From the NCBI GenBank assembly GCA_000002445.1, contig CP000071.1:256001-320000 (forward strand): DNA of 64,000 nt, written 5' to 3'. Made by a program: the position numbers and the translations under genes. This stretch comes from Trypanosoma brucei (Eukaryota). Shown in pieces: positions 1,253 through 51,962 of the stretch (the first letter of the stretch is position 1; each line of letters opens with the position of its first letter). Under the pieces are notes generated by a model. It worked only from the letters and a program-made list of their open reading frames with translations. It ran no database searches and was not told the origin of the DNA.

Positions 1253-1256
<4 letters not shown>

Positions 1257-2734: not shown

Positions 2735-2768
2735 GACGGTAATTATATCAAACGCGCAGGTATCAAAA

Positions 2769-4157: not shown

Positions 4158-4195
<38 letters not shown>

Positions 4196-24031: not shown

Positions 24032-24063
<32 letters not shown>

Positions 24064-29140: not shown

Positions 29141-29873
29141 TGGTATAGGACTCAATGGACCGCAGTACAAATAACAATAGGATGCTATAGACGGAAAGAA
29201 GGCTTGCAACCTTTGCCCACGCTCGTCTCCAAATCAAATAATCCTTTTCCACAGATGCTTTCTTTTCCTCTTCCTCCTGTTGCTCTCACAGCTTCTTCGA
29301 CAACAATGCAGAAAAAAGACTTCTGCCTTTTCCTAGTCCTTTACTCTGTTTGTCTGTTTGTTTGTTTGTTTTTTTTTAATTTTTTCTTTACAATTTGTTT
29401 TTTGTGTGTGTGGTTTTTCTTGGCTTCCTTCAAAAATGATGATTTTCTGTTCTGTATTTTTTTTAGCTTTTTTTTCTCTTTAAGCAGTACCTTCTTCTCA
29501 ATTCGCTTCCCTTCTTTATCGCTCGTGTATCTGTTGCTTTTTTTTCTTGATAATCTACAAGAATTTAAATGCAAGTTGGAGAATATTTTACAAAAAAAAA
29601 AGGTCGAAATGAGAAGTAGCGGGGATGTTATCAATGCATTTTGTATCTCGAAGCGTAAGAACAGCTGGCAAAACAGACGGAGCTGCCAAATGGGGGAAGT
29701 AAACCTATTCAAGAAATAAACAAACACTACTAAAATTGCGAAACAGTTTGTAAAGATCAGGCATATGGAAGTCGAAAAAAAAAACACTCGGAAACCATGA
29801 AAGTTAAAAAGAGCGAGGGAATGTTTTTCAGTCAGCACCGCAAAACAAAACAAAACAACAATTCCACTCGTCT

Positions 29874-30356: not shown

Positions 30357-31094
30357 AACAACAGTTATTAAACTCCTACAAACTCTACACATATCATCAC
30401 AGAGGTTTTTTAAAAAAAAAAATGTAAGAAGCTCAATTACGTACAAACAGGAAGTTAGTTACACAAATTGAAGCTTGTAATAAGAAACACAACAATAGCG
30501 TAAAAGGAATACATGACAGGCAAAAGCCTACAACTCCACAACAAAGGCATAATACAGTTGTATGTATAAACCAATTAGAGAAAGTTGGATTGTTTGTTTT
30601 TTTTTTTTTTAAGGCCAAACAAACACAGTTCCCCACAAAAAAAGTTTCTTCACCCACACAATTAAAAAAAAAGGAACAGCTCCCCCCCCAAAAAAAAAAA
30701 ACTGCTCTCTTTCGCATCAAACCGACAAGGAAAACGCACCGAAATCTACAGGAGTGGAAAAAAAACAATAATATAAAATTTTAAAAAAAGAAAAAAAATA
30801 CAATCCTTTACAACTCTCCAAAAAAAAATTTTAGATGAAGAAAAAAAGTGTATAATACTCTTAAAAACAGGCTTTGCATGGAACTGAAAAAAATATTTAA
30901 AAAAAAAGTTGCAAACACAGAGGTAGTTAAAAAAAAAATACAAAGTATATAACATTACAACTCTAGTTTTTTTTAATTGGCAACGATAAAACCATAACGA
31001 GAAGCCTTAAGTAACACCCAACAATGACACGTTTGCGTGTATGTAATCCCTCACGCTAATCCTTGGCTGCTACACCGAAACGGTACTACTTGGA

Positions 31095-32507
31095 CTACAA
31101 AAGACCAACTAATGTGAAAGTAAGGGAAAATAATAATAAGCGTAAATTGTGGTTCTTATTGCTTGCTGCACTTCCCATTGAAGACAAACGACCTTCACCA
31201 AACTCGATCAGAGAAGCAACTCCAGCCACCTCCATCGTTTTATTCAGTTTGACCTCTTTTCTCCGCACGGCAATGCTGGCAATAGTAATCAGCTGTGTGG
31301 ATGTATTCAGATCTTCAAGCATATGAGAGACCACACGTGTGTCACTCTCCAGTCGCTCCGAGAGATTTGGAAAGTTGTCCATAAGTTTCTTCCTCATATC
31401 ATCCAGAGATTTGGGTGTCACCACCCAAGCTGTTTCCCCGCACACCTCAGCAGCCTTCTTTGCTTTCTCATCTGCAGCATTTCCAGCTATCTTCCTTAGC
31501 GTATTTTCCATGAGTGGTAGGTAATGAGCCCTTATACTTTTGAGATTCCTTGCATACCTGCTTACCTTCTTAAACACATTCTGTGCTTTACTTACTGCTT
31601 TCGCAACCTCAGCAACGGCCCGCTTCACCTGATCCATGTGTCCCCCCGGACGCTTTGCATCCGCTTGGCTCCGTTCCTCCACTTTAGAAACCATTGCAGA
31701 ACGGCTCACAGCTTGCTCCGTGAATGCGTCCACTGCACCTTTTAGGCCTCTGTACTGCTCAACCATCAAACACACTGCTTGTGTCTGATTCAGAGTAAGA
31801 TTGTACTTTCTGGTGATAGAGGCCTTTGTTCCCTCGACCAGTTCCTTCACCGTAGACTCACCTTTGAGCGCCACCGACCTCCAAGTAACGACATTGTAGA
31901 GCACAAACTCCAGCTTCCACAGCTCCCCGGAACTTTCCCGGGTGTCATCCTCCAAACCTTCCGAAGCACCCTCAGGTAACGTACTAAACAACTCCAACAG
32001 CGTACCGTTAAGGGAATCGGAAGACACGCTTTCAGCAGCTCCCTTGCATTTTTCAGCCGCGCTCCTGACTCTCCAATTGGAATTGTGTCCTGCCACCTCC
32101 TTCAACATGCGCTCTAACGCTGCTATACGATTGCTCCTGATCTCTTCAATATTCTCCGCCCTAAACTCAGTCTCAATGGATGCGGTTTCAGCTTTCTTGG
32201 CGGCCTCAGTAACGTTGGAAGCAACACGCTTCGCACGCTCGACGGGATCGGTGGCATTTCTGTTCTCCCACAAGACATCCTCAGCCAAAGTTACATATTC
32301 ATCACTCCGAGTCTTGGCATTCGATATCTTCAATGATTCGGTAGTTATCCAATATTTTAGGTCACGGACGGCATCTTTCAGTCCCCTGAACTGCTTCAGA
32401 GCATTACACAATGTAACAGTTTGCTCAAGTGTAAGATTATTGTTCTTACCAACAGCAAATGGCATGCACAGGAGTACAACTGCTGTGAAACAGGTGAATC
32501 GCGTCAT
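31095..32507 (-). CDS. Ala/Lys-rich predicted alpha-helical secreted protein with signal peptide and C-terminal hydrophobic GPI-anchor-type tail (array copy 1, 470 aa)
   Basis: The track start is a TTG; the first ATG gives MTRFTCFTAVVLLCMPFAVG, a classic signal peptide. The body is helix-favouring (A, K, E, L) with several NxS/T sites. The C-terminus GSAASNKNHNLRLLLFSLTFTLVGLL looks like an omega site plus hydrophobic tail. Confidence 0.8.
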   Translation of the reverse strand: MTRFTCFTAVVLLCMPFAVGKNNNLTLEQTVTLCNALKQFRGLKDAVRDLKYWITTESLKISNAKTRSDEYVTLAEDVLWENRNATDPVERAKRVASNVTEAAKKAETASIETEFRAENIEEIRSNRIAALERMLKEVAGHNSNWRVRSAAEKCKGAAESVSSDSLNGTLLELFSTLPEGASEGLEDDTRESSGELWKLEFVLYNVVTWRSVALKGESTVKELVEGTKASITRKYNLTLNQTQAVCLMVEQYRGLKGAVDAFTEQAVSRSAMVSKVEERSQADAKRPGGHMDQVKRAVAEVAKAVSKAQNVFKKVSRYARNLKSIRAHYLPLMENTLRKIAGNAADEKAKKAAEVCGETAWVVTPKSLDDMRKKLMDNFPNLSERLESDTRVVSHMLEDLNTSTQLITIASIAVRRKEVKLNKTMEVAGVASLIEFGEGRLSSMGSAASNKNHNLRLLLFSLTFTLVGLL

Positions 32508-32900
32508 TTGGCTCAACTCTCTCTTGGATGTGGAAATCTTGGAATGATGTTTCGTCTACAAAATGGTAAGGAAAGATAGCAACAAAAGTTGATACTATGC
32601 ATGAAATGACACGGAGAAAATGAGACCAACTGGAAGCCATAATTAGTCACTTATGCACAAGGCACAACATCTTTACGGAAAACACAACTAAAGTCGTTGA
32701 CATACATGGACTACACAACACAGAAGCAGTGATGTATATGACAGTATGCCTCAGTCACACTTCCATATGTGCATGCACGCTCATAAGCATTGCCAACTTT
32801 CTTGTTGTTCGTATCTTATCCATTCATAAAACATCCCCAACAGAGTGGCATCCATTGACAGCATGCGGTAATAAGTGCCTCCAGCAGCTGTCAGACAAGA

Positions 32901-35900
32901 TTAGTTGTGCGACGAATCACATGAGAGAGAAACATTGCTTTCCTCATCGTGATTGGGATACGCCTGCGCTTCGTCGACGGATGCCGCATGCGGATTATGA
33001 AAAGGTGGTGTGTCGTATACAGGCAGCACAGTGACTCCTTCACCGTCAACATGGGTGTGCCCGCTGTAATTTATAGTGTCTCTGCCACGAGTCGCAGTTG
33101 AGTTGAAGGGAAGCACAACGGCTTGGGGTAGTGGTAGAGGAATCGAGCGCATGGCCTGCTGCAAACGGACATAATCACTAAACTCGGCATCAACTATCGC
33201 CTGCCACTCCTCTTCCTCCCAGTTCACGAGCCGCATACGCCGCCCAGCCTCGCTTTCAAGCATAAACGTCGACTCCTCGTAGAAGTGCTGTGTAGTGGTG
33301 TAACTCATCATGTCATAACTCGTGAGCCGCGACGTATCATGAACGTCCGTCGACATCTCTGACATGGTATCATGAACGGAAACCTCGATTTCCTCACGTG
33401 TTTGCGATTGCAAGCGCCGACGCTGTGAGGCACGCCTCATATAAATGGCATTCAGCAGGTCCGGGTGATCTGCCGGTACAGTCACAGGTATTGGATTGAC
33501 ATTCACACCCCTGCCAGTCGGACCCTCATACATGCTGAATTCTCCACTGTAGTCAAATTGTAGTTCCAGTTCCTTTGCATCCACGCGGATACGCTCAATA
33601 CCGTCTGTAAAGACAAGCGCCATGTTGTAGCGGTCCCTCGCCTCCTGTAATGCGATCTGATCACGATCATCACACTCTTGCTCCTCGACAGAAGTCCAGT
33701 CCGCCCTCCCAGGAAAGTCACCGCCCCACGCAAAGTCGTCAACACCCGATGTCATGCCATCGATCATCGTCCTCGCGGTGGTATTGGTATTGGGGGAACC
33801 ATCACCAGAGTAGAACCCCAGAAGCAGTGGGTTGTTACCGCTTTCCAAATATTCGGGGTCGGGAGATGTTCCACTGATACAAGACATGTCGAGATTGTCC
33901 AGCTGCATCTTATCTGCAACGACAAGTTGTCGCTCCTCCTTCTCCTTAGAGCAGCATCGTCGCAAAAAGCACACGGCAAGCAACAACAGCAGCAGAAACA
34001 GCAACACAGCTGCCACAATAATGGCAATCACCGCCCCCATTCCCAATGGACCCCAAGCAGACCCACCACATATATCCCCACTTGCCTTCACATTACCCAA
34101 AGTAACGCAGTAGGTATTGTCTGTGAGGTCCCATGCGCAAACACTGAACTCCGTGCCCGCGGGGTAGTCTCTAATTTTGTTGTGGTTCATCCTCAACTTA
34201 CACTTGCCATCTGAGCCCTCACTGGCTTCCCCGACGGTGACGCCCTTGTCAGTGGGGTTGCAACAGTCACCCTTGATCACACGCACAACCGTCTGGCGGT
34301 GGGAAGAGTCCGGTGCACGGCACGACTCGAGTGGTGTCACCTTACAAGGTTCCACTATCGAAGGAAATACACTGACGGGTGGAATGAAGCGGAGGCTAGA
34401 GCTCAAAGGGACACTGACGACTGAACGGTTGACAGGAGTGGTAGCGCAGAAATATATCGAGTCCGTACCATTTTGCGCGGTAACAGAAACACGGCGGGCG
34501 CTTGCCGCGTCATCATCACCCACCAGTGCCCAACTTCCATGTGATTCATTTCGACGCAGGCAACTTCTGTCTGTGCTAAAACCGGGAAGCAAGCTCTCAG
34601 CATACAGGTCGTCCATCAAGTACAGAACGCCAGGAACACCAAGAAGGACGTCTCTCCCACGAATATTGTAATACGTAGGGTCAAATGTCTCAATCTGCGC
34701 AATCGGGAGGAGCTGCTTTGCCGAAGCAACACGTGCTGCTATCCCATTAGCGCTTATTTTCACAATTTTGGGACGCGTCGCACTGCCGTCAAAAACCTCC
34801 TGGCAGAGCGTCCACACACCCGCGGATGGTAACCCGGCCGCATTCACGTTCTTGAACGATATATTACCACGCGCCTCCTCGTCAGTCGTAAAGAATGGCA
34901 CCACGTCCTCACCACCACAGGAAGCATCTCGCCGCAGACGAAATGCTGAGTTTGGCGACAGAGGAATGTACACCTCTGCCTCCGTCCCCAGAACAAATGA
35001 CGACGGAAAGATGATATCAGTAGAAACCTCCACTTCCGATACAACACTGAGGTTCCCGGCGGGGGTCCCAACGCACAACGACACGGAAGGCAACCTCCCT
35101 GGAATGAAGGTCGGACCCAGTACAACGCTGCCGCTCGGCCGCACGTAACCCACAGAGTTCCCCGTCAGAGTGGTTGCGCACGCATTTTCGGAGAGATATA
35201 CGCCACGAAAGTCGGAGTTGTGTAGATACGCAAGTGGGTTCTCTGCGTCTTCCCCGGGCACTAACGAGTACAATGGCTTTGCTCCAGAGACCACAGGTGT
35301 CTGCAGTTTTGCGTGAAACCGAGCAGTGGGAACCGCCGCAGGATCGATCTTCTTCACGATGGGCGGAGTTATGATGAGAACCTCCGCTACTGGTATTGGA
35401 GGCGAGGTGGGTTGTTCCCCCAATACACATACACATTTCACGCCTGAGATACCTATTAGCGTAACCGCCTCCTCAACTGGGGTCTCTGCAAGACCGGGGG
35501 CCGCCACAATCTTCTCGCCACACACCGCGCAATCGCTTAGGTACGTGTCCGGTGTTCGGGTAGCGTAGTTCATCACTAAGTTCGCAGGCCCTAGCACCTC
35601 GCTGTCGCTATCCACACGTCCATGAATGCTAGGGTTCACAACACGGAAGTTTTCCACTGAAAGCGTCGGGCCATCTGTTGTGAAGACATACCCAGGATCC
35701 CTTATTGTGTGTGTACACACATAAAACGTAAGATTCCGATTGTACCGTGGCGTCATTGTGGCTCTGCTCTGACTAAGTACTCCATTGCAGTCACTCCTTG
35801 TGGAAAGAAAGGGACTGGTAAGGATCGCCTTGTCAATGCCATAGTCGGTTACTTGTTTCGCTGGAAGCGCCGTCACCGGCCGTACCGCAGGCTGCTTTCC

Positions 35901-38900
35901 ACCGGGGCATTCATCTAAGTGAATCAGTTGCATAGTCCCACGCATAACATACCCACCGCTTTCCCCACGCTCACAATAGTACACATCTGTCAGATCACGG
36001 TTCCGGTATTTGCACTTATCCACATGCAGCGTTGACATAGAGTTGGCTATGACCGTGTCGTACTCACTCAAGATACTGTCAGTACACGCTTCTAAGGTGG
36101 AGATCCTCACCCTCCCACTTTGAATGCCACTGGACTCCACGGTCACACTGCGACCTGCAATAATCGTCGCAGGAGTCATGTAGTGAAAAATATTGAAAGT
36201 AGATGCAGGCAACTTATCATACGCAGAAATACCGACACACACCCTGGCACCCTTCGCCACAGCTGGCGTCTTCACAATGGTAACATCCTTACTGTGTTCG
36301 CCGGAAGCAAAGGGAAAACTGTCATACGAAGCATTCGCCTCTGTGCAGTTAAGCTCTGGGGGGACAATGTAAACGGTGAGATTCGACGCCCCTATATGCA
36401 AGCTACCCCCATCAAGGGTCAAGCGAAGAGGTGTGTGCTTCCGTACGAGTGACACATTAAAGGACGCCGTAAACGGGTTAATCACCTTAAGGGGCTTCTG
36501 ACCAACAGCAACTCCCAAACGCCGCTCATCCTGCTGACACAATGCATATTCGCCTAGTAGAACATCCTCCAAGGGAGTAGTTGGCCCAGTGTAGTAGCGC
36601 TCAGTCGCCTCCTCACAAATCCTTGCATTCAGTGGGACTTTGCAGGAAGCGGCGTTGACACAGCGCACGAGGAACAAAGATGCCTTCTTAAGCAGCGGTC
36701 TTGCCACAAAATTATTCGTTGACCTACGGACAGCGTACAGAGAATCCACAGCAAAATCCTCAGCACTTACCTTCCCTCCGTACAAGTAATACGATTCATT
36801 GGTATCACCCCACCCCACGCAAACATGCAGTTCGCCAGCCTTCTGAACCACAAAAGGTTCTGCACTCCCACTTATGGGGTCAACCCAACCCTCACCGTAC
36901 ACCCTAATGCCACCACCGGGGGCACTTTGGCACGACTCAATGCTCTCGCTCACAAGAAAGCGTGTTGGCTGCAGCGCAGTCAGCGCCTCTCCTCGAAACC
37001 TCATGCTGAGGGGAAGACCAACAACGCCAATAGGTGAATCCGGCACAAGCTCTAGCTGCTGCTGTGACTGAATTAAACCTACATCTTCGTATCCATTCCC
37101 CTTCCACAGGCATACCTTCCATTTCTTCATACCAACAGCTGTGTAGACCACATACGCCGGACCCACTTCAGTAATTCTAATAGCAACGGCAGTACCATCA
37201 TCCACAATTTCGCCACAGTTCACATCACTCGTTTCCTTAAAAAGCACCTTCAGACCTTTGAGGGAGGTCTTATCAGGTACAATAAAATTGACTCGATTGC
37301 TTACGCCAACGAACACGGTCCTGGGGAATACCTCCACATCGGAAACAGCTAACATACCCGATACCCTCACTTTCCAGGCACCCCCATCACTGTCATGGTA
37401 ACCAACACATACGTACACCTTGCCAACTGTGTTGCGCATCACCGTCACGGACGCCTCCCCTTCAGCCGTTGCATTTACCTCAGAAATGGATGGTGTGCAG
37501 CTCTCACTTTCACTGAACACTATGGGCGCCTCAGGCGGTACGGCGGACACCTTGACGGGTGTACTGACACCTTTTACAATGGAAGCCGGCGACAACTCCG
37601 CAGGACCGTATACCATGACATTCCCAACGTTCGAATAGGGGCGATTCACAGGATGTTCCGTGCCCGGTGTCTTCACACACAGCACATGTCTACCCGCAGT
37701 AGAAAACGCAACGCCGTACAGGGCAGTTGCATTCATGGAGTATGTCTCCCCGACTGGTGTAAGGCAATTATCCAGGGAGAAATACCCGGTTGTTCCTGCC
37801 TTGAGAGTCACGTTGGCATCAAGATGAATCGTCTCAGCCACACCCACGAAAAGGGTCCGGTGTTTCAGTTTGTATCGCCGCGTCGCAATATTCTTCACAG
37901 GGTAGGTATATCCCTCGTCAGGTTCCTCGTCCGCTTGTAGGTCGACAGATGAGGGAGTCGCGACACACAAAGTCATGTTCGGGAGTGCGTCCTCAGGAAC
38001 TCGAAACGTGACAGAACTTGCGCCAACTCTCACATCACCTTTTGAGTTGAGTTCCTCACACTCCGGGGTTACCGATAAACCAACCGTTATCACACCACTC
38101 CGCCCCGCATTGTGGCCGCTCAACAAAACCGTCAAATCAAGTCCACTGATCACGTTGGCTTCATCAAATGATACCGTCGGTGGCGGCAGAACTGTCACAA
38201 CAGCCGCACGCGCCTTGGGGTATGCAGTCGTGCTCCCCTCAAGACACGCGTAGTACGTACCTGAAACAGGTAAGGCAACTGCACCCCCATCCGAACGCGA
38301 GCGACGCTTCTTTACTGGGGGGCCCCGATATTGGATTCCTGATGGACCATCCACACGCACAGCCCCTGTACAGTTGGAATACATGTAGAAATCAAGCACC
38401 AACTTCACATCGTTAGCAGCTGCAGTCGCTGCATCCATTGTATACTTAATGCGAGTCCCGTACCCACTGTATAGGGTCCGTGGCTGAACGCCGTACTCCC
38501 GAACAGTTACCTTGTTCTCAGATGGTGAATATAACCTGCCACCCTTGTGGTAGGGCCAACCATTACACAGAAAATAGTCACCTTTAGGCACAGAAACCTC
38601 CATATTAACAACCTGCAACGTTTCCCCACCCACGGGGTCCTGAAGGATCGGATCACATAGGGGTGACTGAGAAAAAGTTGCCCACACGAGGTTGCCTACA
38701 GCCTCCAAGCGAAATGTTTCGTTCGTGTGCCGAAGTGCATCAGTGTTGTTCGTGTCATAACGTGGCACAGCAAGTAACACAGAGGCAGGAACGACGAAAG
38801 TTTTGCCATCACTCGTGGGTACCTTAGCACAAAGATAAATTACGCTTTGGACACTCCGTGTCACTCTCACCTCCCGGTTAGAACCCAGTTCGGCAGGTGG

Positions 38901-39485
38901 CAGACCTTGAATCATGCTCACGTCGTCACAGTTTTCATTGCGGTGAAATGTAATGAAGGTTCCAACAGGCACTGCGTCGCCGAATCGAATAGTGTTGTCA
39001 ACATCACGTTTCAAATAGCGTGGTATGGCTTCAACAAGGCTCAGCTGCACAGACAAAGAAAGGGAGGGAAACGCATCACCAGCACATATATACACTTCAC
39101 GTACTTTCGTATCGTACCACGGGTCAATGCCCACATCATTGCTCGTAACCGTGAAATTACATGGCGCATTCTTGGATATTTTGCACTTGGAGCCAATGAT
39201 CTGTGTATTGTCACATGTACTCATACGCGAAACGAAAATATCTGCTTTGATACTCTGGTCCGTCGTTTCCACACTGAACGGTACGTTCACCAGCGGTTTG
39301 TTAGGTCGTAACACAAGTGATGCAGCTCCACTGCTGCATAAAAACGTTGACGACACGATGCACAGAACTGAAGCCCAAAAAGTAAAGGGCACCTTACAGC
39401 AATGTCGGTAACGTGGAGATAGAGAGGAAGCATGGCTGGTACCTGTGCCACAGTGGGTTGAGTCCCTTCTTAGAAACATTTGCAT
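32901..39485 (-). CDS. Giant type I membrane glycoprotein with a modular cysteine-rich ectodomain, one TM helix and a ~340-aa cytoplasmic tail (array copy 1, ~2194 aa)
   Basis: An uninterrupted 6.6-kb ORF. The first ATG is at 39485 (the track TTG start is at 39494). A hydrophobic signal segment (FTFWASVLCIVSSTFLCSSGAAS) follows a ~30-aa N-region. The ectodomain has more than 40 Cys and many NxS/T sites. The TM segment GAVIAIIVAAVLLFLLLLLLAVCFL is encoded at about 33940..34030, followed by a basic stop-transfer (RRCCSKEKEE). Confidence 0.8.
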   Translation of the reverse strand: MQMFLRRDSTHCGTGTSHASSLSPRYRHCCKVPFTFWASVLCIVSSTFLCSSGAASLVLRPNKPLVNVPFSVETTDQSIKADIFVSRMSTCDNTQIIGSKCKISKNAPCNFTVTSNDVGIDPWYDTKVREVYICAGDAFPSLSLSVQLSLVEAIPRYLKRDVDNTIRFGDAVPVGTFITFHRNENCDDVSMIQGLPPAELGSNREVRVTRSVQSVIYLCAKVPTSDGKTFVVPASVLLAVPRYDTNNTDALRHTNETFRLEAVGNLVWATFSQSPLCDPILQDPVGGETLQVVNMEVSVPKGDYFLCNGWPYHKGGRLYSPSENKVTVREYGVQPRTLYSGYGTRIKYTMDAATAAANDVKLVLDFYMYSNCTGAVRVDGPSGIQYRGPPVKKRRSRSDGGAVALPVSGTYYACLEGSTTAYPKARAAVVTVLPPPTVSFDEANVISGLDLTVLLSGHNAGRSGVITVGLSVTPECEELNSKGDVRVGASSVTFRVPEDALPNMTLCVATPSSVDLQADEEPDEGYTYPVKNIATRRYKLKHRTLFVGVAETIHLDANVTLKAGTTGYFSLDNCLTPVGETYSMNATALYGVAFSTAGRHVLCVKTPGTEHPVNRPYSNVGNVMVYGPAELSPASIVKGVSTPVKVSAVPPEAPIVFSESESCTPSISEVNATAEGEASVTVMRNTVGKVYVCVGYHDSDGGAWKVRVSGMLAVSDVEVFPRTVFVGVSNRVNFIVPDKTSLKGLKVLFKETSDVNCGEIVDDGTAVAIRITEVGPAYVVYTAVGMKKWKVCLWKGNGYEDVGLIQSQQQLELVPDSPIGVVGLPLSMRFRGEALTALQPTRFLVSESIESCQSAPGGGIRVYGEGWVDPISGSAEPFVVQKAGELHVCVGWGDTNESYYLYGGKVSAEDFAVDSLYAVRRSTNNFVARPLLKKASLFLVRCVNAASCKVPLNARICEEATERYYTGPTTPLEDVLLGEYALCQQDERRLGVAVGQKPLKVINPFTASFNVSLVRKHTPLRLTLDGGSLHIGASNLTVYIVPPELNCTEANASYDSFPFASGEHSKDVTIVKTPAVAKGARVCVGISAYDKLPASTFNIFHYMTPATIIAGRSVTVESSGIQSGRVRISTLEACTDSILSEYDTVIANSMSTLHVDKCKYRNRDLTDVYYCERGESGGYVMRGTMQLIHLDECPGGKQPAVRPVTALPAKQVTDYGIDKAILTSPFLSTRSDCNGVLSQSRATMTPRYNRNLTFYVCTHTIRDPGYVFTTDGPTLSVENFRVVNPSIHGRVDSDSEVLGPANLVMNYATRTPDTYLSDCAVCGEKIVAAPGLAETPVEEAVTLIGISGVKCVCVLGEQPTSPPIPVAEVLIITPPIVKKIDPAAVPTARFHAKLQTPVVSGAKPLYSLVPGEDAENPLAYLHNSDFRGVYLSENACATTLTGNSVGYVRPSGSVVLGPTFIPGRLPSVSLCVGTPAGNLSVVSEVEVSTDIIFPSSFVLGTEAEVYIPLSPNSAFRLRRDASCGGEDVVPFFTTDEEARGNISFKNVNAAGLPSAGVWTLCQEVFDGSATRPKIVKISANGIAARVASAKQLLPIAQIETFDPTYYNIRGRDVLLGVPGVLYLMDDLYAESLLPGFSTDRSCLRRNESHGSWALVGDDDAASARRVSVTAQNGTDSIYFCATTPVNRSVVSVPLSSSLRFIPPVSVFPSIVEPCKVTPLESCRAPDSSHRQTVVRVIKGDCCNPTDKGVTVGEASEGSDGKCKLRMNHNKIRDYPAGTEFSVCAWDLTDNTYCVTLGNVKASGDICGGSAWGPLGMGAVIAIIVAAVLLFLLLLLLAVCFLRRCCSKEKEERQLVVADKMQLDNLDMSCISGTSPDPEYLESGNNPLLLGFYSGDGSPNTNTTARTMIDGMTSGVDDFAWGGDFPGRADWTSVEEQECDDRDQIALQEARDRYNMALVFTDGIERIRVDAKELELQFDYSGEFSMYEGPTGRGVNVNPIPVTVPADHPDLLNAIYMRRASQRRRLQSQTREEIEVSVHDTMSEMSTDVHDTSRLTSYDMMSYTTTQHFYEESTFMLESEAGRRMRLVNWEEEEWQAIVDAEFSDYVRLQQAMRSIPLPLPQAVVLPFNSTATRGRDTINYSGHTHVDGEGVTVLPVYDTPPFHNPHAASVDEAQAYPNHDEESNVSLSCDSSHN

Positions 39486-41521
39486 AAATACCAAACGCTA
39501 CAACAACCTTCTCAGTACTCGCTTATTCCCTTTCTCTCAACGTGTATGCCTTTATGCTCTTGCAGAAAACTATTTACGGTGTGCGTATTCGCCAACCCGC
39601 GTAAACCTAAGACGATTGTGCACAGACTCCTCTGTCTCTGTCTCTCACACTAGTTCCTTACCACGCGACCCGTTTAAGAGGGAAGTGGCTAAACTATGTA
39701 AGGTGCTTATGGAATTACTACGGTACTGACCTTCACTTATCTTCGTGTACTCCGTTTAACTTTCAATTGCCCCTCCGCAGTGATGAACTCTTTTGTTTGA
39801 TTTCTTCTATGGTTGCTTCTATCCTCAGTTACTATGAAGATACAGCTGTATCTATTACCTCCGTTACTCGACAAAAATGTTTCCCCGGTGAAAAAGGGAT
39901 GTGCCTCTATGGATATACAAATGTATGAGTCCACAAATGTATGGATATGCAGGTGTAGAAAATATGCGACCCTACACGTACAGCTTTTCTATGTAACGTC
40001 CTGTTGAAATGGTCCTCGTTTACTCTTATTTGTGCTTTCTCGTATCGTTGTCGATCTCCTTCCCGTTCCACAACAGACTTTTCTCGCAATATCGCTCGCC
40101 TGTGTATCGGTAAATCAATTCACAAAACACCTTTATGGTAGGAACGGTATATCAAACTGATGAATATTTAGTGTGCGAAGCTTGAGGCTACGCTACTGAT
40201 CAATGCGGACAACACGTCGGGCAGAAAACTACAGAAACTAAAACAAAAGGGCTAAAAATGCGGTAAAAAAATCTATAAACCTATGTAAATGATGGTAGCG
40301 ATATATTGTCAGAGCTGCTTCGCGAAACAGAAATGGCAACTGAATGGCTAACTAAAAAAAACAAAAAAGATCTAGCAGTAATATCGCGCTGCTTCTGCAC
40401 AACGTCTAAAGTGTGATGCACGGAAAGGAAGTAGTTTTTCAAGAGAAGTGCACACAAAATGGTAAGCACATGGGTGAGGAATGCGCTCCATAGACATCAA
40501 TGAATAAACCCCGCGCACACAAGCAAGTGAAACGACATATCAAAAGAAGTTACAATGCAACACTTAAAGAGTACAACATGTGCTGGTGAAGTAACAAAAC
40601 CCACACATTCACTTTTTAAAAATGGTCAAAAGATATAATGCCCCTGAATTTATTAAGAAGAGGTGGGCATCAGGGTAGCACAGGCGGATACAACTCCAGG
40701 CCAAGAGGGCAACAAAGACATATGAACTGCAAGTGCAAACAATTACTATAATGTTTTACATTTAGCAACCGACACACTATAAATGACCACAAGGGACTTT
40801 AACATGTCCCCGATAGATCCACCCACAATCGCTAAACGAAGTAATTCAAGCGAGCACATAAACTCACGGCAACATTCCAAGCGTAGCAAACACAATGTAG
40901 TGGAGAGCAGACGTACAGCACCTGGAAGGCGCCATCTCAAACTCGGTACTCACTAATACATACCACACAGCTGCACAGTTCAGTCATATAATGAACATTA
41001 AACGGTTATATATATAATAACTGCTACAATAAGGAAAAAAAGGGAGGGGGGAAAGGGAAGCAATTATGAAGTCAAGACTAAATTAATACTTTACATACAC
41101 AGCAGAGAATTGCACAATCTGTAAAGCGCTCACACATGTAAGTATACACAAGAAGGAGTAAACACTAAAATGAAAACACGGATGAAAATAATGAAGAAAC
41201 GCTAACGCACCTGCTCACCAACACAACATAGCAGTCTACATTGCTGTATATGTGATGTGCATAAAATGTCGAGAAACTAGGAACAAACACTAAATAAAGG
41301 TACCAGAATAGCCATGCCGATACTTTAAAAGAAAAAAAGAATTTATAAAAAAATATATTAGGATCATGATTAGCATATAAAAGTGAAAACGCTATTGAAA
41401 ACAATGGCAACGATAAAACCATAACGAGAAGCCTTAAGTAACACCCAACAATGACACGTTTGCGTGTATGTAATCCCTCACGCTAATCCTTGGCTGCTAC
41501 ACCGAAACGGTACTACTTGGA

Positions 41522-42934
41522 CTACAAAAGACCAACTAATGTGAAAGTAAGGGAAAATAATAATAAGCGTAAATTGTGGTTCTTATTGCTTGCTGCACTT
41601 CCCATTGAAGACAAACGACCTTCACCAAACTCGATCAGAGAAGCAACTCCAGCCACCTCCATCGTTTTATTCAGTTTGACCTCTTTTCTCCGCACGGCAA
41701 TGCTGGCAATAGTAATCAGCTGTGTGGATGTATTCAGATCTTCAAGCATATGAGAGACCACACGTGTGTCACTCTCCAGTCGCTCCGAGAGATTTGGAAA
41801 GTTGTCCATAAGTTTCTTCCTCATATCATCCAGAGATTTGGGTGTCACCACCCAAGCTGTTCCCCCGCACACCTCAGCAGCCTTCTTTGCTTTCTCATCT
41901 GCAGCATTTCCAGCTATCTTCCTTAGCGTATTTTCCATGAGTGGTAGGTAATGAGCCCTTATACTTTTGAGATTCCTTGCATACCTGCTTACCTTCTTAA
42001 ACACATTCTGTGCTTTACTTACTGCTTTCGCAACCTCAGCAACGGCCCGCTTCACCTGATCCATGTGTCCCCCCGGACGCTTTGCATCCGCTTGGCTCCG
42101 TTCCTCCACTTTAGAAACCATTGCAGAACGGCTCACAGCTTGCTCCGTGAATGCGTCCACTGCACCTTTTAGGCCTCTGTACTGCTCAACCATCAAACAC
42201 ACTGCTTGTGTCTGATTCAGAGTAAGATTGTACTTTCTGGTGATAGAGGCCTTTGTTCCCTCGACCAGTTCCTTCACCGTAGACTCACCTTTGAGCGCCA
42301 CCGACCTCCAAGTAACGACATTGTAGAGCACAAACTCCAGCTTCCACAGCTCCCCGGAACTTTCCCGGGTGTCATCCTCCAAACCTTCCGAAGCACCCTC
42401 AGGTAACGTACTAAACAACTCCAACAGCGTACCGTTAAGGGAATCGGAAGACACGCTTTCAGCAGCTCCCTTGCATTTTTCAGCCGCGCTCCTGACTCTC
42501 CAATTGGAATTGTGTCCTGCCACCTCCTTCAACATGCGCTCTAACGCTGCTACACGATTGCTCCTGATCTCTTCAATATTCTCCGCCCTAAACTCAGTCT
42601 CAATGGATGCGGTTTCAGCTTTCTTGGCGGCCTCAGTAACGTTGGAAGCAACACGCTTCGCACGCTCGACGGGATCGGTGGCATTTCTGTTCTCCCACAA
42701 GACATCCTCAGCCAAAGTTACATATTCATCACTCCGAGTCTTGGCATTCGATATCTTCAATGATTCGGTAGTTATCCAATATTTTAGGTCACGGACGGCA
42801 TCTTTCAGTCCCCTGAACTGCTTCAGAGCATTACACAATGTAACAGTTTGCTCAAGTGTAAGATTATTGTTCTTACCAACAGCAAATGGCATGCACAGGA
42901 GTACAACTGCTGTGAAACAGGTGAATCGTGTCAT
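41522..42934 (-). CDS. Ala/Lys-rich GPI-anchor-type surface protein, array copy 2 (2 aa differences from copy 1: I->V, E->G)
   Basis: Identical to copy 1 except for two substitutions, at a 10,427-bp offset. Confidence 0.8.
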   Translation of the reverse strand: MTRFTCFTAVVLLCMPFAVGKNNNLTLEQTVTLCNALKQFRGLKDAVRDLKYWITTESLKISNAKTRSDEYVTLAEDVLWENRNATDPVERAKRVASNVTEAAKKAETASIETEFRAENIEEIRSNRVAALERMLKEVAGHNSNWRVRSAAEKCKGAAESVSSDSLNGTLLELFSTLPEGASEGLEDDTRESSGELWKLEFVLYNVVTWRSVALKGESTVKELVEGTKASITRKYNLTLNQTQAVCLMVEQYRGLKGAVDAFTEQAVSRSAMVSKVEERSQADAKRPGGHMDQVKRAVAEVAKAVSKAQNVFKKVSRYARNLKSIRAHYLPLMENTLRKIAGNAADEKAKKAAEVCGGTAWVVTPKSLDDMRKKLMDNFPNLSERLESDTRVVSHMLEDLNTSTQLITIASIAVRRKEVKLNKTMEVAGVASLIEFGEGRLSSMGSAASNKNHNLRLLLFSLTFTLVGLL

Positions 42935-43327
42935 TTGGCTCAACTCTCTCTTGGATGTGGAAATCTTGGAATGATGTTTCGTCTACAAAATGGTAAGGAA
43001 AGATAGCAACAAAAGTTGATACTATGCATGAAATGACACGGAGAAAAGGAGACCAACTGGAAGCCATAATTAGTCACTTATGCACAAGGCACAACATCTT
43101 TACGGAAAACACAACTAAAGTCGTTGACATACATGGACTACACAACACAGAAGCAGTGATGTATATGACAGTATGCCTCAGTCACACTTCCATATGTGCA
43201 TGCACGCTCATAAGCATTGCCAACTTTCTTGTTGTTCGTATCTTATCCATTCATAAAACATCCCCAACAGAGTGGCATCCATTGACAGCATGCGGTAATA
43301 AGTGCCTCCAGCAGCTGTCAGACAAGA

Positions 43328-46300
43328 TTAGTTGTGCGACGAATCACATGAGAGAGAAACATTGCTTTCCTCATCGTGATTGGGATACGCCTGCGCTTCG
43401 TCGACGGATGCCGCATGCGGATTATGAAAAGGTGGTGTGTCGTATACAGGCAGCACAGTGACTCCTTCACCGTCAACATGGGTGTGCCCGCTGTAATTTA
43501 TAGTGTCTCTGCCACGAGTCGCAGTTGAGTTGAAGGGAAGCACAACGGCTTGGGGTAGTGGTAGAGGAATCGAGCGCATGGCCTGCTGCAAACGGACATA
43601 ATCACTAAACTCGGCATCAACTATCGCCTGCCACTCCTCTTCCTCCCAGTTCACGAGCCGCATACGCCGCCCAGCCTCGCTTTCAAGCATAAACGTCGAC
43701 TCCTCGTAGAAGTGCTGTGTAGTGGTGTAACTCATCATGTCATAACTCGTGAGCCGCGACGTATCATGAACGTCCGTCGACATCTCTGACATGGTATCAT
43801 GAACGGAAACCTCGATTTCCTCACGTGTTTGCGATTGCAAGCGCCGACGCTGTGAGGCACGCCTCATATAAATGGCATTCAGCAGGTCCGGGTGATCTGC
43901 CGGTACAGTCACAGGTATTGGATTGACATTCACACCCCTGCCAGTCGGACCCTCATACATGCTGAATTCTCCACTGTAGTCAAATTGTAGTTCCAGTTCC
44001 TTTGCATCCACGCGGATACGCTCAATACCGTCTGTAAAGACAAGCGCCATGTTGTAGCGGTCCCTCGCCTCCTGTAATGCGATCTGATCACGATCATCAC
44101 ACTCTTGCTCCTCGACAGAAGTCCAGTCCGCCCTCCCAGGAAAGTCACCGCCCCACGCAAAGTCGTCAACACCCGATGTCATGCCATCGATCATCGTCCT
44201 CGCGGTGGTATTGGTATTGGGGGAACCATCACCAGAGTAGAACCCCAGAAGCAGTGGGTTGTTACCGCTTTCCAAATATTCGGGGTCGGGAGATGTTCCA
44301 CTGATACAAGACATGTCGAGATTGTCCAGCTGCATCTTATCTGCAACGACAAGTTGTCGCTCCTCCTTCTCCTTAGAGCAGCATCGTCGCAAAAAGCACA
44401 CGGCAAGCAACAACAGCAGCAGAAACAGCAACACAGCTGCCACAATAATGGCAATCACCGCCCCCATTCCCAATGGACCCCAAGCAGACCCACCACATAT
44501 ATCCCCACTTGCCTTCACATTACCCAAAGTAACGCAGTAGGTATTGTCTGTGAGGTCCCATGCGCAAACACTGAACTCCGTGCCCGCGGGGTAGTCTCTA
44601 ATTTTGTTGTGGTTCATCCTCAACTTACACTTGCCATCTGAGCCCTCACTGGCTTCCCCGACGGTGACGCCCTTGTCAGTGGGGTTGCAGCAGTCACCCT
44701 TGATCACACGCACAACCGTCTGGCGGTGGGAAGAGTCCGGTGCACGGCACGACTCGAGTGGTGTCACCTTACAAGGTTCCACTATCGAAGGAAATACACT
44801 GACGGGTGGAATGAAGCGGAGGCTAGAGCTCAAAGGGACACTGACGACTGAACGGTTGACAGGAGTGGTAGCGCAGAAATATATCGAGTCCGTACCATTT
44901 TGCGCGGTAACAGAAACACGGCGGGCGCTTGCCGCGTCATCATCACCCACCAGTGCCCAACTTCCATGTGATTCATTTCGACGCAGGCAACTTCTGTCTG
45001 TGCTAAAACCGGGAAGCAAGCTCTCAGCATACAGGTCGTCCATCAAGTACAGAACGCCAGGAACACCAAGAAGGACGTCTCTCCCACGAATATTGTAATA
45101 CGTAGGGTCAAATGTCTCAATCTGCGCAATCGGGAGGAGCTGCTTTGCCGAAGCAACACGTGCTGCTATCCCATTAGCGCTTATTTTCACAATTTTGGGA
45201 CGCGTCGCACTGCCGTCAAAAACCTCCTGGCAGAGCGTCCACACACCCGCGGATGGTAACCCGGCCGCATTCACGTTCTTGAACGATATATTACCACGCG
45301 CCTCCTCGTCAGTCGTAAAGAATGGCACCACGTCCTCACCACCACAGGAAGCATCTCGCCGCAGACGAAATGCTGAGTTTGGCGACAGAGGAATGTACAC
45401 CTCTGCCTCCGTCCCCAGAACAAATGACGACGGAAAGATGATATCAGTAGAAACCTCCACTTCCGATACAACACTGAGGTTCCCGGCGGGGGTCCCAACG
45501 CACAACGACACGGAAGGCAACCTCCCTGGAATGAAGGTCGGACCCAGTACAACGCTGCCGCTCGGCCGCACGTAACCCACAGAGTTCCCCGTCAGAGTGG
45601 TTGCGCACGCATTTTCGGAGAGATATACGCCACGAAAGTCGGAGTTGTGTAGATACGCAAGTGGGTTCTCTGCGTCTTCCCCGGGCACTAACGAGTACAA
45701 TGGCTTTGCTCCAGAGACCACAGGTGTCTGCAGTTTTGCGTGAAACCGAGCAGTGGGAACCGCCGCAGGATCGATCTTCTTCACGATGGGCGGAGTTATG
45801 ATGAGAACCTCCGCTACTGGTATTGGAGGCGAGGTGGGTTGTTCCCCCAATACACATACACATTTCACGCCTGAGATACCTATTAGCGTAACCGCCTCCT
45901 CAACTGGGGTCTCTGCAAGACCGGGGGCCGCCACAATCTTCTCGCCACACACCGCGCAATCGCTTAGGTACGTGTCCGGTGTTCGGGTAGCGTAGTTCAT
46001 CACTAAGTTCGCAGGCCCTAGCACCTCGCTGTCGCTATCCACACGTCCATGAATGCTAGGGTTCACAACACGGAAGTTTTCCACTGAAAGCGTCGGGCCA
46101 TCTGTTGTGAAGACATACCCAGGATCCCTTATTGTGTGTGTACACACATAAAACGTAAGATTCCGATTGTACCGTGGCGTCATTGTGGCTCTGCTCTGAC
46201 TAAGTACTCCATTGCAGTCACTCCTTGTGGAAAGAAAGGGACTGGTAAGGATCGCCTTGTCAATGCCATAGTCGGTTACTTGTTTCGCTGGAAGCGCCGT

Positions 46301-49300
46301 CACCGGCCGTACCGCAGGCTGCTTTCCACCGGGGCATTCATCTAAGTGAATCAGTTGCATAGTCCCACGCATAACATACCCACCGCTTTCCCCACGCTCA
46401 CAATAGTACACATCTGTCAGATCACGGTTCCGGTATTTGCACTTATCCACATGCAGCGTTGACATAGAGTTGGCTATGACCGTGTCGTACTCACTCAAGA
46501 TACTGTCAGTACACGCTTCTAAGGTGGAGATCCTCACCCTCCCACTTTGAATGCCACTGGACTCCACGGTCACACTGCGACCTGCAATAATCGTCGCAGG
46601 AGTCATGTAGTGAAAAATATTGAAAGTAGATGCAGGCAACTTATCATACGCAGAAATACCGACACACACCCTGGCACCCTTCGCCACAGCTGGCGTCTTC
46701 ACAATGGTAACATCCTTACTGTGTTCGCCGGAAGCAAAGGGAAAACTGTCATACGAAGCATTCGCCTCTGTGCAGTTAAGCTCTGGGGGGACAATGTAAA
46801 CGGTGAGATTCGACGCCCCTATATGCAAGCTACCCCCATCAAGGGTCAAGCGAAGAGGTGTGTGCTTCCGTACGAGTGACACATTAAAGGACGCCGTAAA
46901 CGGGTTAATCACCTTAAGGGGCTTCTGACCAACAGCAACTCCCAAACGCCGCTCATCCTGCTGACACAATGCATATTCGCCTAGTAGAACATCCTCCAAG
47001 GGAGTAGTTGGCCCAGTGTAGTAGCGCTCAGTCGCCTCCTCACAAATCCTTGCATTCAGTGGGACTTTGCAGGAAGCGGCGTTGACACAGCGCACGAGGA
47101 ACAAAGATGCCTTCTTAAGCAGCGGTCTTGCCACAAAATTATTCGTTGACCTACGGACAGCGTACAGAGAATCCACAGCAAAATCCTCAGCACTTACCTT
47201 CCCTCCGTACAAGTAATACGATTCATTGGTATCACCCCACCCCACGCAAACATGCAGTTCGCCAGCCTTCTGAACCACAAAAGGTTCTGCACTCCCACTT
47301 ATGGGGTCAACCCAACCCTCACCGTACACCCTAATGCCACCACCGGGGGCACTTTGGCACGACTCAATGCTCTCGCTCACAAGAAAGCGTGTTGGCTGCA
47401 GCGCAGTCAGCGCCTCTCCTCGAAACCTCATGCTGAGGGGAAGACCAACAACGCCAATAGGTGAATCCGGCACAAGCTCTAGCTGCTGCTGTGACTGAAT
47501 TAAACCTACATCTTCGTATCCATTCCCCTTCCACAGGCATACCTTCCATTTCTTCATACCAACAGCTGTGTAGACCACATACGCCGGACCCACTTCAGTA
47601 ATTCTAATAGCAACGGCAGTACCATCATCCACAATTTCGCCACAGTTCACATCACTCGTTTCCTTAAAAAGCACCTTCAGACCTTTGAGGGAGGTCTTAT
47701 CAGGTACAATAAAATTGACTCGATTGCTTACGCCAACGAACACGGTCCTGGGGAATACCTCCACATCGGAAACAGCTAACATACCCGATACCCTCACTTT
47801 CCAGGCACCCCCATCACTGTCATGGTAACCAACACATACGTACACCTTGCCAACTGTGTTGCGCATCACCGTCACGGACGCCTCCCCTTCAGCCGTTGCA
47901 TTTACCTCAGAAATGGATGGTGTGCAGCTCTCACTTTCACTGAACACTATGGGCGCCTCAGGCGGTACGGCGGACACCTTGACGGGTGTACTGACACCTT
48001 TTACAATGGAAGCCGGCGACAACTCCGCAGGACCGTATACCATGACATTCCCAACGTTCGAATAGGGGCGATTCACAGGATGTTCCGTGCCCGGTGTCTT
48101 CACACACAGCACATGTCTACCCGCAGTAGAAAACGCAACGCCGTACAGGGCAGTTGCATTCATGGAGTATGTCTCCCCGACTGGTGTAAGGCAATTATCC
48201 AGGGAGAAATACCCGGTTGTTCCTGCCTTGAGAGTCACGTTGGCATCAAGATGAATCGTCTCAGCCACACCCACGAAAAGGGTCCGGTGTTTCAGTTTGT
48301 ATCGCCGCGTCGCAATATTCTTCACAGGGTAGGTATATCCCTCGTCAGGTTCCTCGTCCGCTTGTAGGTCGACAGATGAGGGAGTCGCGACACACAAAGT
48401 CATGTTCGGGAGTGCGTCCTCAGGAACTCGAAACGTGACAGAACTTGCGCCAACTCTCACATCACCTTTTGAGTTGAGTTCCTCACACTCCGGGGTTACC
48501 GATAAACCAACCGTTATCACACCACTCCGCCCCGCATTGTGGCCGCTCAACAAAACCGTCAAATCAAGTCCACTGATCACGTTGGCTTCATCAAATGATA
48601 CCGTCGGTGGCGGCAGAACTGTCACAACAGCCGCACGCGCCTTGGGGTATGCAGTCGTGCTCCCCTCAAGACACGCGTAGTACGTACCTGAAACAGGTAA
48701 GGCAACTGCACCCCCATCCGAACGCGAGCGACGCTTCTTTACTGGGGGGCCCCGATATTGGATTCCTGATGGACCATCCACACGCACAGCCCCTGTACAG
48801 TTGGAATACATGTAGAAATCAAGCACCAACTTCACATCGTTAGCAGCTGCAGTCGCTGCATCCATTGTATACTTAATGCGAGTCCCGTACCCACTGTATA
48901 GGGTCCGTGGCTGAACGCCGTACTCCCGAACAGTTACCTTGTTCTCAGATGGTGAATATAACCTGCCACCCTTGTGGTAGGGCCAACCATTACACAGAAA
49001 ATAGTCACCTTTAGGCACAGAAACCTCCATATTAACAACCTGCAACGTTTCCCCACCCACGGGGTCCTGAAGGATCGGATCACATATGGGTGACTGAGAA
49101 AAAGTTGCCCACACGAGGTTGCCTACAGCCTCCAAGCGAAATGTTTCGTTCGTGTGCCGAAGTGCATCAGTGTTGTTCGTGTCATAACGTGGCACAGCAA
49201 GTAACACAGAGGCAGGAACGACGAAAGTTTTGCCATCACTCGTGGGTACCTTAGCACAAAGATAAATTACGCTTTGGACACTCCGTGTCACTCTCACCTC

Positions 49301-49912
49301 CCGGTTAGAACCCAGTTCGGCAGGTGGCAGACCTTGAATCATGCTCACGTCGTCACAGTTTTCATTGCGGTGAAATGTAATGAAGGTTCCAACAGGCACT
49401 GCGTCGCCGAATCGAATAGTGTTGTCAACATCACGTTTCAAATAGCGTGGTATGGCTTCAACAAGGCTCAGCTGCACAGACAAAGAAAGGGAGGGAAACG
49501 CATCACCAGCACATATATACACTTCACGTACTTTCGTATCGTACCACGGGTCAATGCCCACATCATTGCTCGTAACCGTGAAATTACATGGCGCATTCTT
49601 GGATATTTTGCACTTGGAGCCAATGATCTGTGTATTGTCACATGTACTCATACGCGAAACGAAAATATCTGCTTTGATACTCTGGTCCGTCGTTTCCACA
49701 CTGAACGGTACGTTCACCAGCGGTTTGTTAGGTCGTAACACAAGTGATGCAGCTCCACTGCTGCATAAAAACGTTGACGACACGATGCACAGAACTGAAG
49801 CCCAAAAAGTAAAGGGCACCTTACAGCAATGTCGGTAACGTGGAGATAGAGAGGAAGCATGGCTGGTACCTGTGCCACAGTGGGTTGAGTCCCTTCTTAG
49901 AAACATTTGCAT
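43328..49912 (-). CDS. Giant type I membrane glycoprotein, array copy 2 (one L->I difference seen)
   Basis: Identical to copy 1 at a 10,427-bp offset apart from SQSPLCDP vs SQSPICDP. Confidence 0.8.
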   Translation of the reverse strand: MQMFLRRDSTHCGTGTSHASSLSPRYRHCCKVPFTFWASVLCIVSSTFLCSSGAASLVLRPNKPLVNVPFSVETTDQSIKADIFVSRMSTCDNTQIIGSKCKISKNAPCNFTVTSNDVGIDPWYDTKVREVYICAGDAFPSLSLSVQLSLVEAIPRYLKRDVDNTIRFGDAVPVGTFITFHRNENCDDVSMIQGLPPAELGSNREVRVTRSVQSVIYLCAKVPTSDGKTFVVPASVLLAVPRYDTNNTDALRHTNETFRLEAVGNLVWATFSQSPICDPILQDPVGGETLQVVNMEVSVPKGDYFLCNGWPYHKGGRLYSPSENKVTVREYGVQPRTLYSGYGTRIKYTMDAATAAANDVKLVLDFYMYSNCTGAVRVDGPSGIQYRGPPVKKRRSRSDGGAVALPVSGTYYACLEGSTTAYPKARAAVVTVLPPPTVSFDEANVISGLDLTVLLSGHNAGRSGVITVGLSVTPECEELNSKGDVRVGASSVTFRVPEDALPNMTLCVATPSSVDLQADEEPDEGYTYPVKNIATRRYKLKHRTLFVGVAETIHLDANVTLKAGTTGYFSLDNCLTPVGETYSMNATALYGVAFSTAGRHVLCVKTPGTEHPVNRPYSNVGNVMVYGPAELSPASIVKGVSTPVKVSAVPPEAPIVFSESESCTPSISEVNATAEGEASVTVMRNTVGKVYVCVGYHDSDGGAWKVRVSGMLAVSDVEVFPRTVFVGVSNRVNFIVPDKTSLKGLKVLFKETSDVNCGEIVDDGTAVAIRITEVGPAYVVYTAVGMKKWKVCLWKGNGYEDVGLIQSQQQLELVPDSPIGVVGLPLSMRFRGEALTALQPTRFLVSESIESCQSAPGGGIRVYGEGWVDPISGSAEPFVVQKAGELHVCVGWGDTNESYYLYGGKVSAEDFAVDSLYAVRRSTNNFVARPLLKKASLFLVRCVNAASCKVPLNARICEEATERYYTGPTTPLEDVLLGEYALCQQDERRLGVAVGQKPLKVINPFTASFNVSLVRKHTPLRLTLDGGSLHIGASNLTVYIVPPELNCTEANASYDSFPFASGEHSKDVTIVKTPAVAKGARVCVGISAYDKLPASTFNIFHYMTPATIIAGRSVTVESSGIQSGRVRISTLEACTDSILSEYDTVIANSMSTLHVDKCKYRNRDLTDVYYCERGESGGYVMRGTMQLIHLDECPGGKQPAVRPVTALPAKQVTDYGIDKAILTSPFLSTRSDCNGVLSQSRATMTPRYNRNLTFYVCTHTIRDPGYVFTTDGPTLSVENFRVVNPSIHGRVDSDSEVLGPANLVMNYATRTPDTYLSDCAVCGEKIVAAPGLAETPVEEAVTLIGISGVKCVCVLGEQPTSPPIPVAEVLIITPPIVKKIDPAAVPTARFHAKLQTPVVSGAKPLYSLVPGEDAENPLAYLHNSDFRGVYLSENACATTLTGNSVGYVRPSGSVVLGPTFIPGRLPSVSLCVGTPAGNLSVVSEVEVSTDIIFPSSFVLGTEAEVYIPLSPNSAFRLRRDASCGGEDVVPFFTTDEEARGNISFKNVNAAGLPSAGVWTLCQEVFDGSATRPKIVKISANGIAARVASAKQLLPIAQIETFDPTYYNIRGRDVLLGVPGVLYLMDDLYAESLLPGFSTDRSCLRRNESHGSWALVGDDDAASARRVSVTAQNGTDSIYFCATTPVNRSVVSVPLSSSLRFIPPVSVFPSIVEPCKVTPLESCRAPDSSHRQTVVRVIKGDCCNPTDKGVTVGEASEGSDGKCKLRMNHNKIRDYPAGTEFSVCAWDLTDNTYCVTLGNVKASGDICGGSAWGPLGMGAVIAIIVAAVLLFLLLLLLAVCFLRRCCSKEKEERQLVVADKMQLDNLDMSCISGTSPDPEYLESGNNPLLLGFYSGDGSPNTNTTARTMIDGMTSGVDDFAWGGDFPGRADWTSVEEQECDDRDQIALQEARDRYNMALVFTDGIERIRVDAKELELQFDYSGEFSMYEGPTGRGVNVNPIPVTVPADHPDLLNAIYMRRASQRRRLQSQTREEIEVSVHDTMSEMSTDVHDTSRLTSYDMMSYTTTQHFYEESTFMLESEAGRRMRLVNWEEEEWQAIVDAEFSDYVRLQQAMRSIPLPLPQAVVLPFNSTATRGRDTINYSGHTHVDGEGVTVLPVYDTPPFHNPHAASVDEAQAYPNHDEESNVSLSCDSSHN

Positions 49913-51832: not shown

Positions 51833-51962
51833 TGGCAACGATAAAACCATAACGAGAAGCCTTAAGTAACACCCAACAATGACACGTTTGCGTGTATGTA
51901 ATCCCTCACGCTAATCCTTGGCTGCTACACCGAAACGGTACTACTTGGACTACAAAAGACCA
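51833..51962. repeat. Partial third repeat unit (3' flank of the surface gene, ~130 bp) preceding the mosaic paralog
   Basis: Identical to 30978..31107 and 41405..41534, then diverges abruptly 3 codons before the stop of the paralog. Confidence 0.9.

Follow-up and report, generated by a model that had tools for sequence, protein, structure and literature searches.

A giant, tandemly duplicated gene of Trypanosoma brucei chromosome 8 very probably encodes flagella connector protein 1, a type I membrane protein with an array of predicted immunoglobulin-like modules

The flagella connector is a rare case of a mobile transmembrane junction, by way of which the new flagellum receives information on cell shape from the old one. 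In the passages of the literature that deal with it, the connector is said to exist only in Trypanosoma brucei, and its zone 3, which lies between the membranes of the two flagella, is represented by flagella connector protein 1 (FCP1); depletion of FCP1, FCP2, FCP4 or FC1 is described there as severing the connection prematurely (PMC6529878, PMC11555346, PMC9826329). Among the connector proteins named in those passages, FCP1 alone is demonstrably a membrane protein whose extracellular part is large. Cryo-electron tomography (cryo-ET) of the interstitial zone has revealed filamentous, periodic densities that project from both membranes, set in lines 7 nm apart with a repeat of 11 nm and stacked in one to three layers, in a gap that narrows from 28 nm to 13 nm as the connector matures and that, at its extreme tip, can be as wide as ~50 nm. 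Here we analyse a giant open reading frame (ORF) in a window of 64,000 nucleotides of the T. brucei genome (contig CP000071.1, positions 256,001 to 320,000 of the forward strand; all coordinates below are those of the window). We consider it very probable that this ORF is FCP1 (Tb927.8.940), with Tb927.8.960 as its tandem twin, and that it encodes a type I membrane protein of about 17 immunoglobulin (Ig)-like modules serving as an adhesive link in the junction.

The ORF runs uninterrupted over 32901..39494 of the minus strand, and its first ATG, at 39485, gives a product of 2194 aa that contains all the motifs quoted in an earlier, sequence-only reading of this DNA, which had described a giant type I membrane protein. 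This product matches XP_846931.1/Q57YD7 from chromosome 8 of T. brucei brucei TREU927 with 100% identity and 100% coverage, a database entry labelled 'hypothetical protein, conserved'. A search of literature text with the UniProt and RefSeq accessions of the giant proteins returned no match, and the link to a described gene comes from gene order. The 602-aa ORF at 55464-57272 is phosphoacetylglucosamine mutase (PAGM), and the gene-specific part of the published forward primer for TbPAGM (Tb927.8.980) matches exactly at 57258-57272, the start of that ORF. Three GARP ORFs in the window correspond to Tb927.8.930/950/970, a family of GPI (glycosylphosphatidylinositol)-anchored proteins enriched in the salivary gland. 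With.980 anchored by the primer and the GARP ORFs as.930,.950 and.970, the giant ORFs between them are Tb927.8.940 and Tb927.8.960; by gene order,.940 thus lies between.930 and.950 and upstream of.980, the position expected of FCP1. Halliday et al. 2019 (PMC6529878) give FCP1 as the name of Tb927.8.940 and use the protein, with a C-terminal tag, as their landmark for the connector.

The giant ORF and FCP1 are accordingly the same gene, identical in sequence, position and tandem twin, and the zone 3 role fits a large type I ectodomain. The sequence-only reading, which could match the protein to no characterised trypanosome surface protein, was mistaken on this point. As the gene, its location and its phenotype have already been published and its orthologues are annotated across trypanosomatids, the finding from the genome scan is no discovery. 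The present analysis establishes the identity of the gene, its architecture, predicted fold, duplication and phylogenetic spread, and its additions are modest: a map of the modules, the non-canonical position of their Cys pair, the antiquity of the array across the named trypanosomatids, and a geometric constraint on the protein in the junction. The module-by-module anatomy, that is, 17 modules with a Cys pair linking the C-C' loop to strand F and a Cys-rich stalk, is absent from those literature passages that mention FCP1.

The modules are marked by a 'second' Cys at positions 134, 219, 307, 414, 507, 603, 693, 792, 889, 983, 1083, 1171, 1257, 1353, 1471, 1561 and 1680, with spacings of 85-119 residues (mean 96.6, standard deviation 10.3; n=17 modules). 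Each sits in the context G-x-(Y/W/H/hydrophobic)-x-(L/V)-C, which occurs 17 times, and is preceded 24-42 residues upstream by a partner Cys. In nearly all cases these Cys residues are invariant or nearly so among the 4 to 24 homologues compared. The positions of Cys alone give a Fourier peak at period 96 that is marginal, being reached by 270 of 5000 shuffles (5.4%), because the length of the modules drifts. At position -2 of Cys, aromatic residues are enriched (9/42 against a background of 0.09, p=0.011), while hydrophobic residues overall are not (0.33 vs 0.33). Comparison of module against module with phmmer yielded marginal scores, too weak to carry the case on their own.

Profiles are more informative. 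Using 24 homologues out of 45 representatives from a full HMMER scan, we aligned ortholog profile against ortholog profile with hhalign, and modules 1-17 match one another in register over 60-85 columns, the probabilities reaching 94%; module 18, next to the membrane, has no match to modules 1-17 by this method. A hidden Markov model (HMM) started from module 7 and iterated until it converged recovers FCP1 modules 1, 5, 7, 9 and 12 and 111 domains across the family, with zero matches in reversed or shuffled decoys. The count of about 18 modules made from the sequence was therefore a fair one, corresponding to 17 modules plus a different, Cys-rich one, and the periodicity behind it holds in profile self-alignment. 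Orthologous modules are far more alike than adjacent ones, which indicates that the array is old and fixed and not the outcome of a recent repeat expansion.

AlphaFold2 models built from 24-sequence alignments are confident, with a mean predicted local distance difference test (pLDDT) score of 85.6 for residues 56-960 and 84.7 for residues 901-1815, and are all-beta. DSSP assigns 43% of the modelled ectodomain to strand and 4% to helix; the modules have 5-10 strands each, mostly 7-9. Modules of ~90-100 aa with 7-9 strands in two sheets place the array in the Ig-like beta-sandwich fold as a broad class. Foldseek against the PDB gave 245 matches at E<=1e-3, the best being multi-domain sandwich arrays: GhpA, DSCAM, contactins, neurofascin, thick-filament proteins of the myofibril, complement/alpha-2-macroglobulin MG domains and ciliary central-apparatus proteins. 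The fold searches returned solely Ig-like, FN3, MG and IPT arrays.

Searches at the sequence level gave a different picture. Pfam returned no family at E<=1 for FCP1 except three sub-threshold matches around the transmembrane (TM) segment, and none at E<=0.1 for four homologues; a sequence search of the PDB gave nothing meaningful, its sole Ig-type match being a Fab chain at E=0.025. No sequence profile of the Ig superfamily (V/C1/C2/I-set) matched. In the models, the motif Cys of all 17 modules lies within the long penultimate, F-like strand, so that the aromatic-x-Cys of Ig strand F is present, whereas its partner lies in the C-C' loop, just past strand three or four. The cysteines are 24-42 residues apart, unlike the ~55-75 that separate those of an Ig B-F disulfide, and probably form a bond from the C-C' loop to strand F, joining neighbouring strands of one sheet and not crossing from sheet to sheet. 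On the strength of these models, we regard the modules as Ig-like in fold but outside every curated sequence family. Thus, of the earlier proposal of Ig/fibronectin modules, the beta-sandwich fold and the placing of Y-x-C in an F-like strand stand, while canonical Ig or FN3 membership does not, given the absence of Pfam matches and the different Cys pair.

Outside the array (Table 1), the N-terminus has a hydropathy peak at residues 40-59 and is poorly conserved among homologues; its signal peptide is presumably cleaved. The membrane-proximal Cys-rich module, all-beta in the AlphaFold2 model and with invariant Cys, ranks with the most conserved regions of FCP1. The single TM helix and the 19 NxS/T sites of the ectodomain (~1750 aa) bear out the expectation of one membrane anchor and many N-glycan sites. 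At the end of the helix, the cysteines of CFLRRCC are candidate palmitoylation sites, an assignment of sites made from the sequence. Tb927.8.960 has been reported as palmitoylated and as up-regulated towards the end of differentiation and in the procyclic stage (PMC4765897). Its palmitoylation fits CFLRRCC, and its procyclic up-regulation fits a procyclic-specific connector. Within the tail, three blocks are conserved in Trypanosoma: ECDDRDQIALQEARDRYNMAL, NWEEEEW and PLPLPQAVV. The YxxPhi-type tail motifs pointed out earlier, YDMM and YVRL, are both present, but conservation of the former fails already in T. vivax and that of the latter does not extend beyond Trypanosoma; on account of this poor conservation we reject them as functional sorting motifs.

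Table 1. Features of the FCP1 locus, in window coordinates
Feature	Position	Strand	Basis or remark
FCP1 coding sequence, copy 1 (Tb927.8.940)	32901..39485	-	ORF and XP_846931.1/Q57YD7 match; 2194 aa + stop
N-terminal region with signal-peptide-like hydrophobic segment (residues 1-55; core ~35-58)	39321..39485	-	hydropathy
Array of 17 diverged Ig-like beta-sandwich modules with one conserved Cys pair per module (residues 56-1691)	34413..39320	-	profiles and models
Cys-rich module next to the membrane (residues 1692-1812; 8 Cys, conserved GDCC among them)	34050..34412	-	alignment, AlphaFold2
Single transmembrane helix (residues 1816-1841)	33963..34040	-	Kyte-Doolittle maximum 3.5
Juxtamembrane C1839, C1844, C1845 (CFLRRCC), where the TM helix meets the cytoplasm	33951..33971	-	sequence
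Cytoplasmic tail (residues 1842-2194, 353 aa)	32904..33962	-	alignment with homologues
Tandem duplication, one GARP-like GPI gene and one FCP1 gene per unit	30978..51021	.	shifted self-comparison
FCP1 copy 2 (Tb927.8.960)	43328..49912	-	2194 aa; one residue differs from copy 1
GARP ORFs, 462-473 aa	31095-32516, 41522-42943, 51950-53338	-	two Pfam GARP domains each (PF16731, E 6e-69 to 1e-117)

If FCP1 acts as we think, it would be a type I, probably palmitoylated glycoprotein of the flagellar membrane that helps to keep the growing flagellum attached by its tip to the old one. The extracellular adhesive layer between the flagellar membranes would consist at least partly of FCP1 ectodomains, the conserved FCP1 tail of ~353 aa would couple to the sub-membrane layers (plates) of the connector, and loss of FCP1 would let the new flagellum's tip detach early. 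The binding may be homophilic or heterophilic; this mode, and the membrane that carries FCP1, are points that we infer. A candidate adhesin had been proposed from the sequence, in keeping with the published connector role. Seventeen sandwich modules of typical Ig-domain dimensions would span ~70 nm if straight. Set against a gap of 13-28 nm, this means that the chain would be bent or folded, or would run roughly parallel to the membranes. A straight rod of 60-70 nm perpendicular to the membrane is rejected, since the gap is ~50 nm at most, and the earlier picture of a rod projecting ~60 nm falls with it. The cryo-ET densities are compatible with arrays of modular rods.

Several points weigh against this account of FCP1. 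The ID Tb927.8.940 is assigned by gene order, with no direct sequence-to-ID table behind it, and the localisation and phenotype of FCP1 rest on secondary citations. The tag on FCP1 is C-terminal and reports the cytoplasmic tail, so that we infer the presence of the ectodomain in zone 3. The geometry between modules is uncertain in the models (predicted template modelling scores of 0.52-0.56). Finally, Leishmania and T. cruzi have homologues while the connector is reported from T. brucei alone, and hence the fold is not specific to connector function. As to the membrane that carries FCP1, knock-down of cAMP-BP1 breaks the junction and leaves zone 3-5 markers on the old flagellum, an observation made for FC1 and not for FCP1.

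Three other explanations have to be weighed, of which the one that denies a modular beta-sandwich ectodomain, with the periodic Cys motif a product of chance or composition, is effectively refuted already. It could draw on the marginal Fourier signal, the weak phmmer scores and the lack of Pfam domains, but the in-register profile matches of 17 modules, the iterated HMM free of decoy matches, the conservation of Cys in 24 homologues and the confident all-beta models with Ig-like fold matches all speak against it. Somewhat less remote, yet very improbable in our view, is a role of FCP1 as a receptor or adhesin on the surface of the flagellum or the cell body, directed at the tsetse host or the environment, with the connector location being secondary. 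The presence of the family in Leishmania, T. cruzi and other named trypanosomatid genera, when the connector is reported for T. brucei alone, would suit such a role, as would the adjacent GARP-like genes, which encode insect-stage surface proteins. In the passages describing FCP1, however, published tagging takes it as a specific landmark of the flagella connector, and its knock-down phenotype is a cell-autonomous detachment of the flagellum in culture.

The third explanation accepts that FCP1 belongs to the junction but makes it a scaffold or spacer, which would fix the width of the membrane gap and give order to the interstitial lattice; the contact in trans would fall to FC1 or another partner. 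In favour of it, the extended chain is longer than the gap, FC1 is also in zone 3, and the thinning of the interstitial zone from 28 to 13 nm on maturation suggests rearranging layers and not a fixed bridge. Against this, depletion of FCP1 alone is described, in the passages concerned, as leading to detachment, and long Ig-like chains in type I membrane proteins are typical of adhesion molecules, DSCAM, contactin and neurofascin being among the Foldseek matches. A pure scaffold is thus possible, although we think it unlikely, and FCP1 as an adhesive link remains our preferred reading. For its further dissection, the chain of modules and the Cys-rich stalk offer handles for module deletion, ectodomain binding assays and fitting into cryo-ET densities.

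Homologues that carry names are found in trypanosomatids only. Identity to FCP1 is 42-44% in T. vivax and ~38-40% in T. cruzi, with T. grayi also homologous, and falls to 24-29% in Leishmania spp., Porcisia and Novymonas. In a neighbour-joining (NJ) tree, the Trypanosoma proteins cluster and the Leishmaniinae form two groups, one being a tandem pair on ~0.59-Mb, chromosome 7-sized contigs and the other unlinked. Since homologues occur in Leishmania and T. cruzi and the connector is reported for T. brucei alone, the family appears to be older than the structure.

Two loci illustrate the Leishmaniinae groups. On L. tarentolae contig BLBS01000008.1, the tandem FCP1-family genes at 745-6672 and 10001-16750 encode mosaic proteins of 1975 and 2249 aa. 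For most of the ectodomain the two share ~100% identity, which falls to 23-58% at residues ~150-300, ~400-700 and ~1050-1100 and over the entire cytoplasmic tail. The pattern suggests that gene conversion has been partial, the distal modules having diversified and the tails being different. The unlinked paralogue of L. guyanensis (CP103946.1, 10001-17275; 2424 aa), which adjoins genes for a WD40 protein and ribosomal protein S25, belongs to an NJ clade apart from the chromosome 7 pair.

A broader scheme, which we offer as speculation and judge rather improbable, would make the FCP1 family an ancestral trypanosomatid membrane-junction module that predates the connector. An older adhesion protein of the flagellum would have been recruited in T. 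brucei to build a mobile junction between flagella, and its ectodomains, stacked in plane, would form the 7 nm x 11 nm lattice. The Leishmania tandem paralogues, with their identical ectodomain core, different distal modules and unrelated tails, could then be the two sides of a heterotypic junction in flagellum-pocket or flagellum-insect attachment.

The duplication that holds the two FCP1 genes comprises 1.92 copies of a 10,427-bp unit, as 30978-40594 recurs at 41405-51021 in a shifted self-comparison with 6 mismatches over ~9.6 kb; the 1 kb upstream of the FCP1 copies is 100% identical. The ORF of copy 2 spans 43328..49921, equal in length to that of copy 1 and offset from it by 10,427 bp, and its product, XP_846933.1/Q57XH9, shares a 90% cluster with the copy 1 protein. 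Such a near-perfect repeat suggests a very recent duplication or ongoing gene conversion; collapse or expansion in the assembly is a possible alternative. The GARP ORFs, which have a signal peptide and a hydrophobic C-terminus, alternate with the procyclic-stage FCP1 genes in the same direction of transcription. Directly before the duplicated block lies a 488-aa minus-strand ORF (27743-29209), rich in Q and P and of low complexity with long QQQ runs, for which Pfam gave no match. Further away, ~15300-27700 is a ~12 kb AT-rich stretch (GC fraction 0.28-0.34), unusually gene-poor for a core region of T. brucei; tandem repeats are absent from it, its ORFs do not exceed 151 aa, and no Rfam family reached the gathering score.

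In their overall design, the metazoan multi-Ig/FN3 adhesion molecules (DSCAM, contactins, neurofascin, Robo) resemble FCP1: they share its type I topology, a chain of ~95-aa sandwich modules, the aromatic-x-Cys of the F strand and a role in membrane-membrane adhesion. They differ in that no sequence relationship to FCP1 is detectable, FCP1 is without the Trp signature of strand C, its Cys pair runs from the C-C' loop to F and not from B to F, and its family is seemingly restricted to trypanosomatids among named homologues. The E-set, bacterial Ig-like, IPT-TIG and MG domains (Bap, MpIBP RII, plexin IPT, complement MG, T9SS CTD) are just 4-15% identical to FCP1 in sequence; none of them is clearly top-scoring for its modules, and no Pfam match links them to it. 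Within trypanosomes, FLA1 and FLA1BP are, like FCP1, type I glycoproteins of an extracellular membrane-membrane junction that involves the flagellum. They are much smaller and have a different extracellular domain, and the junction they form is between flagellum and cell body, whereas that of FCP1 is between flagellum and flagellum.

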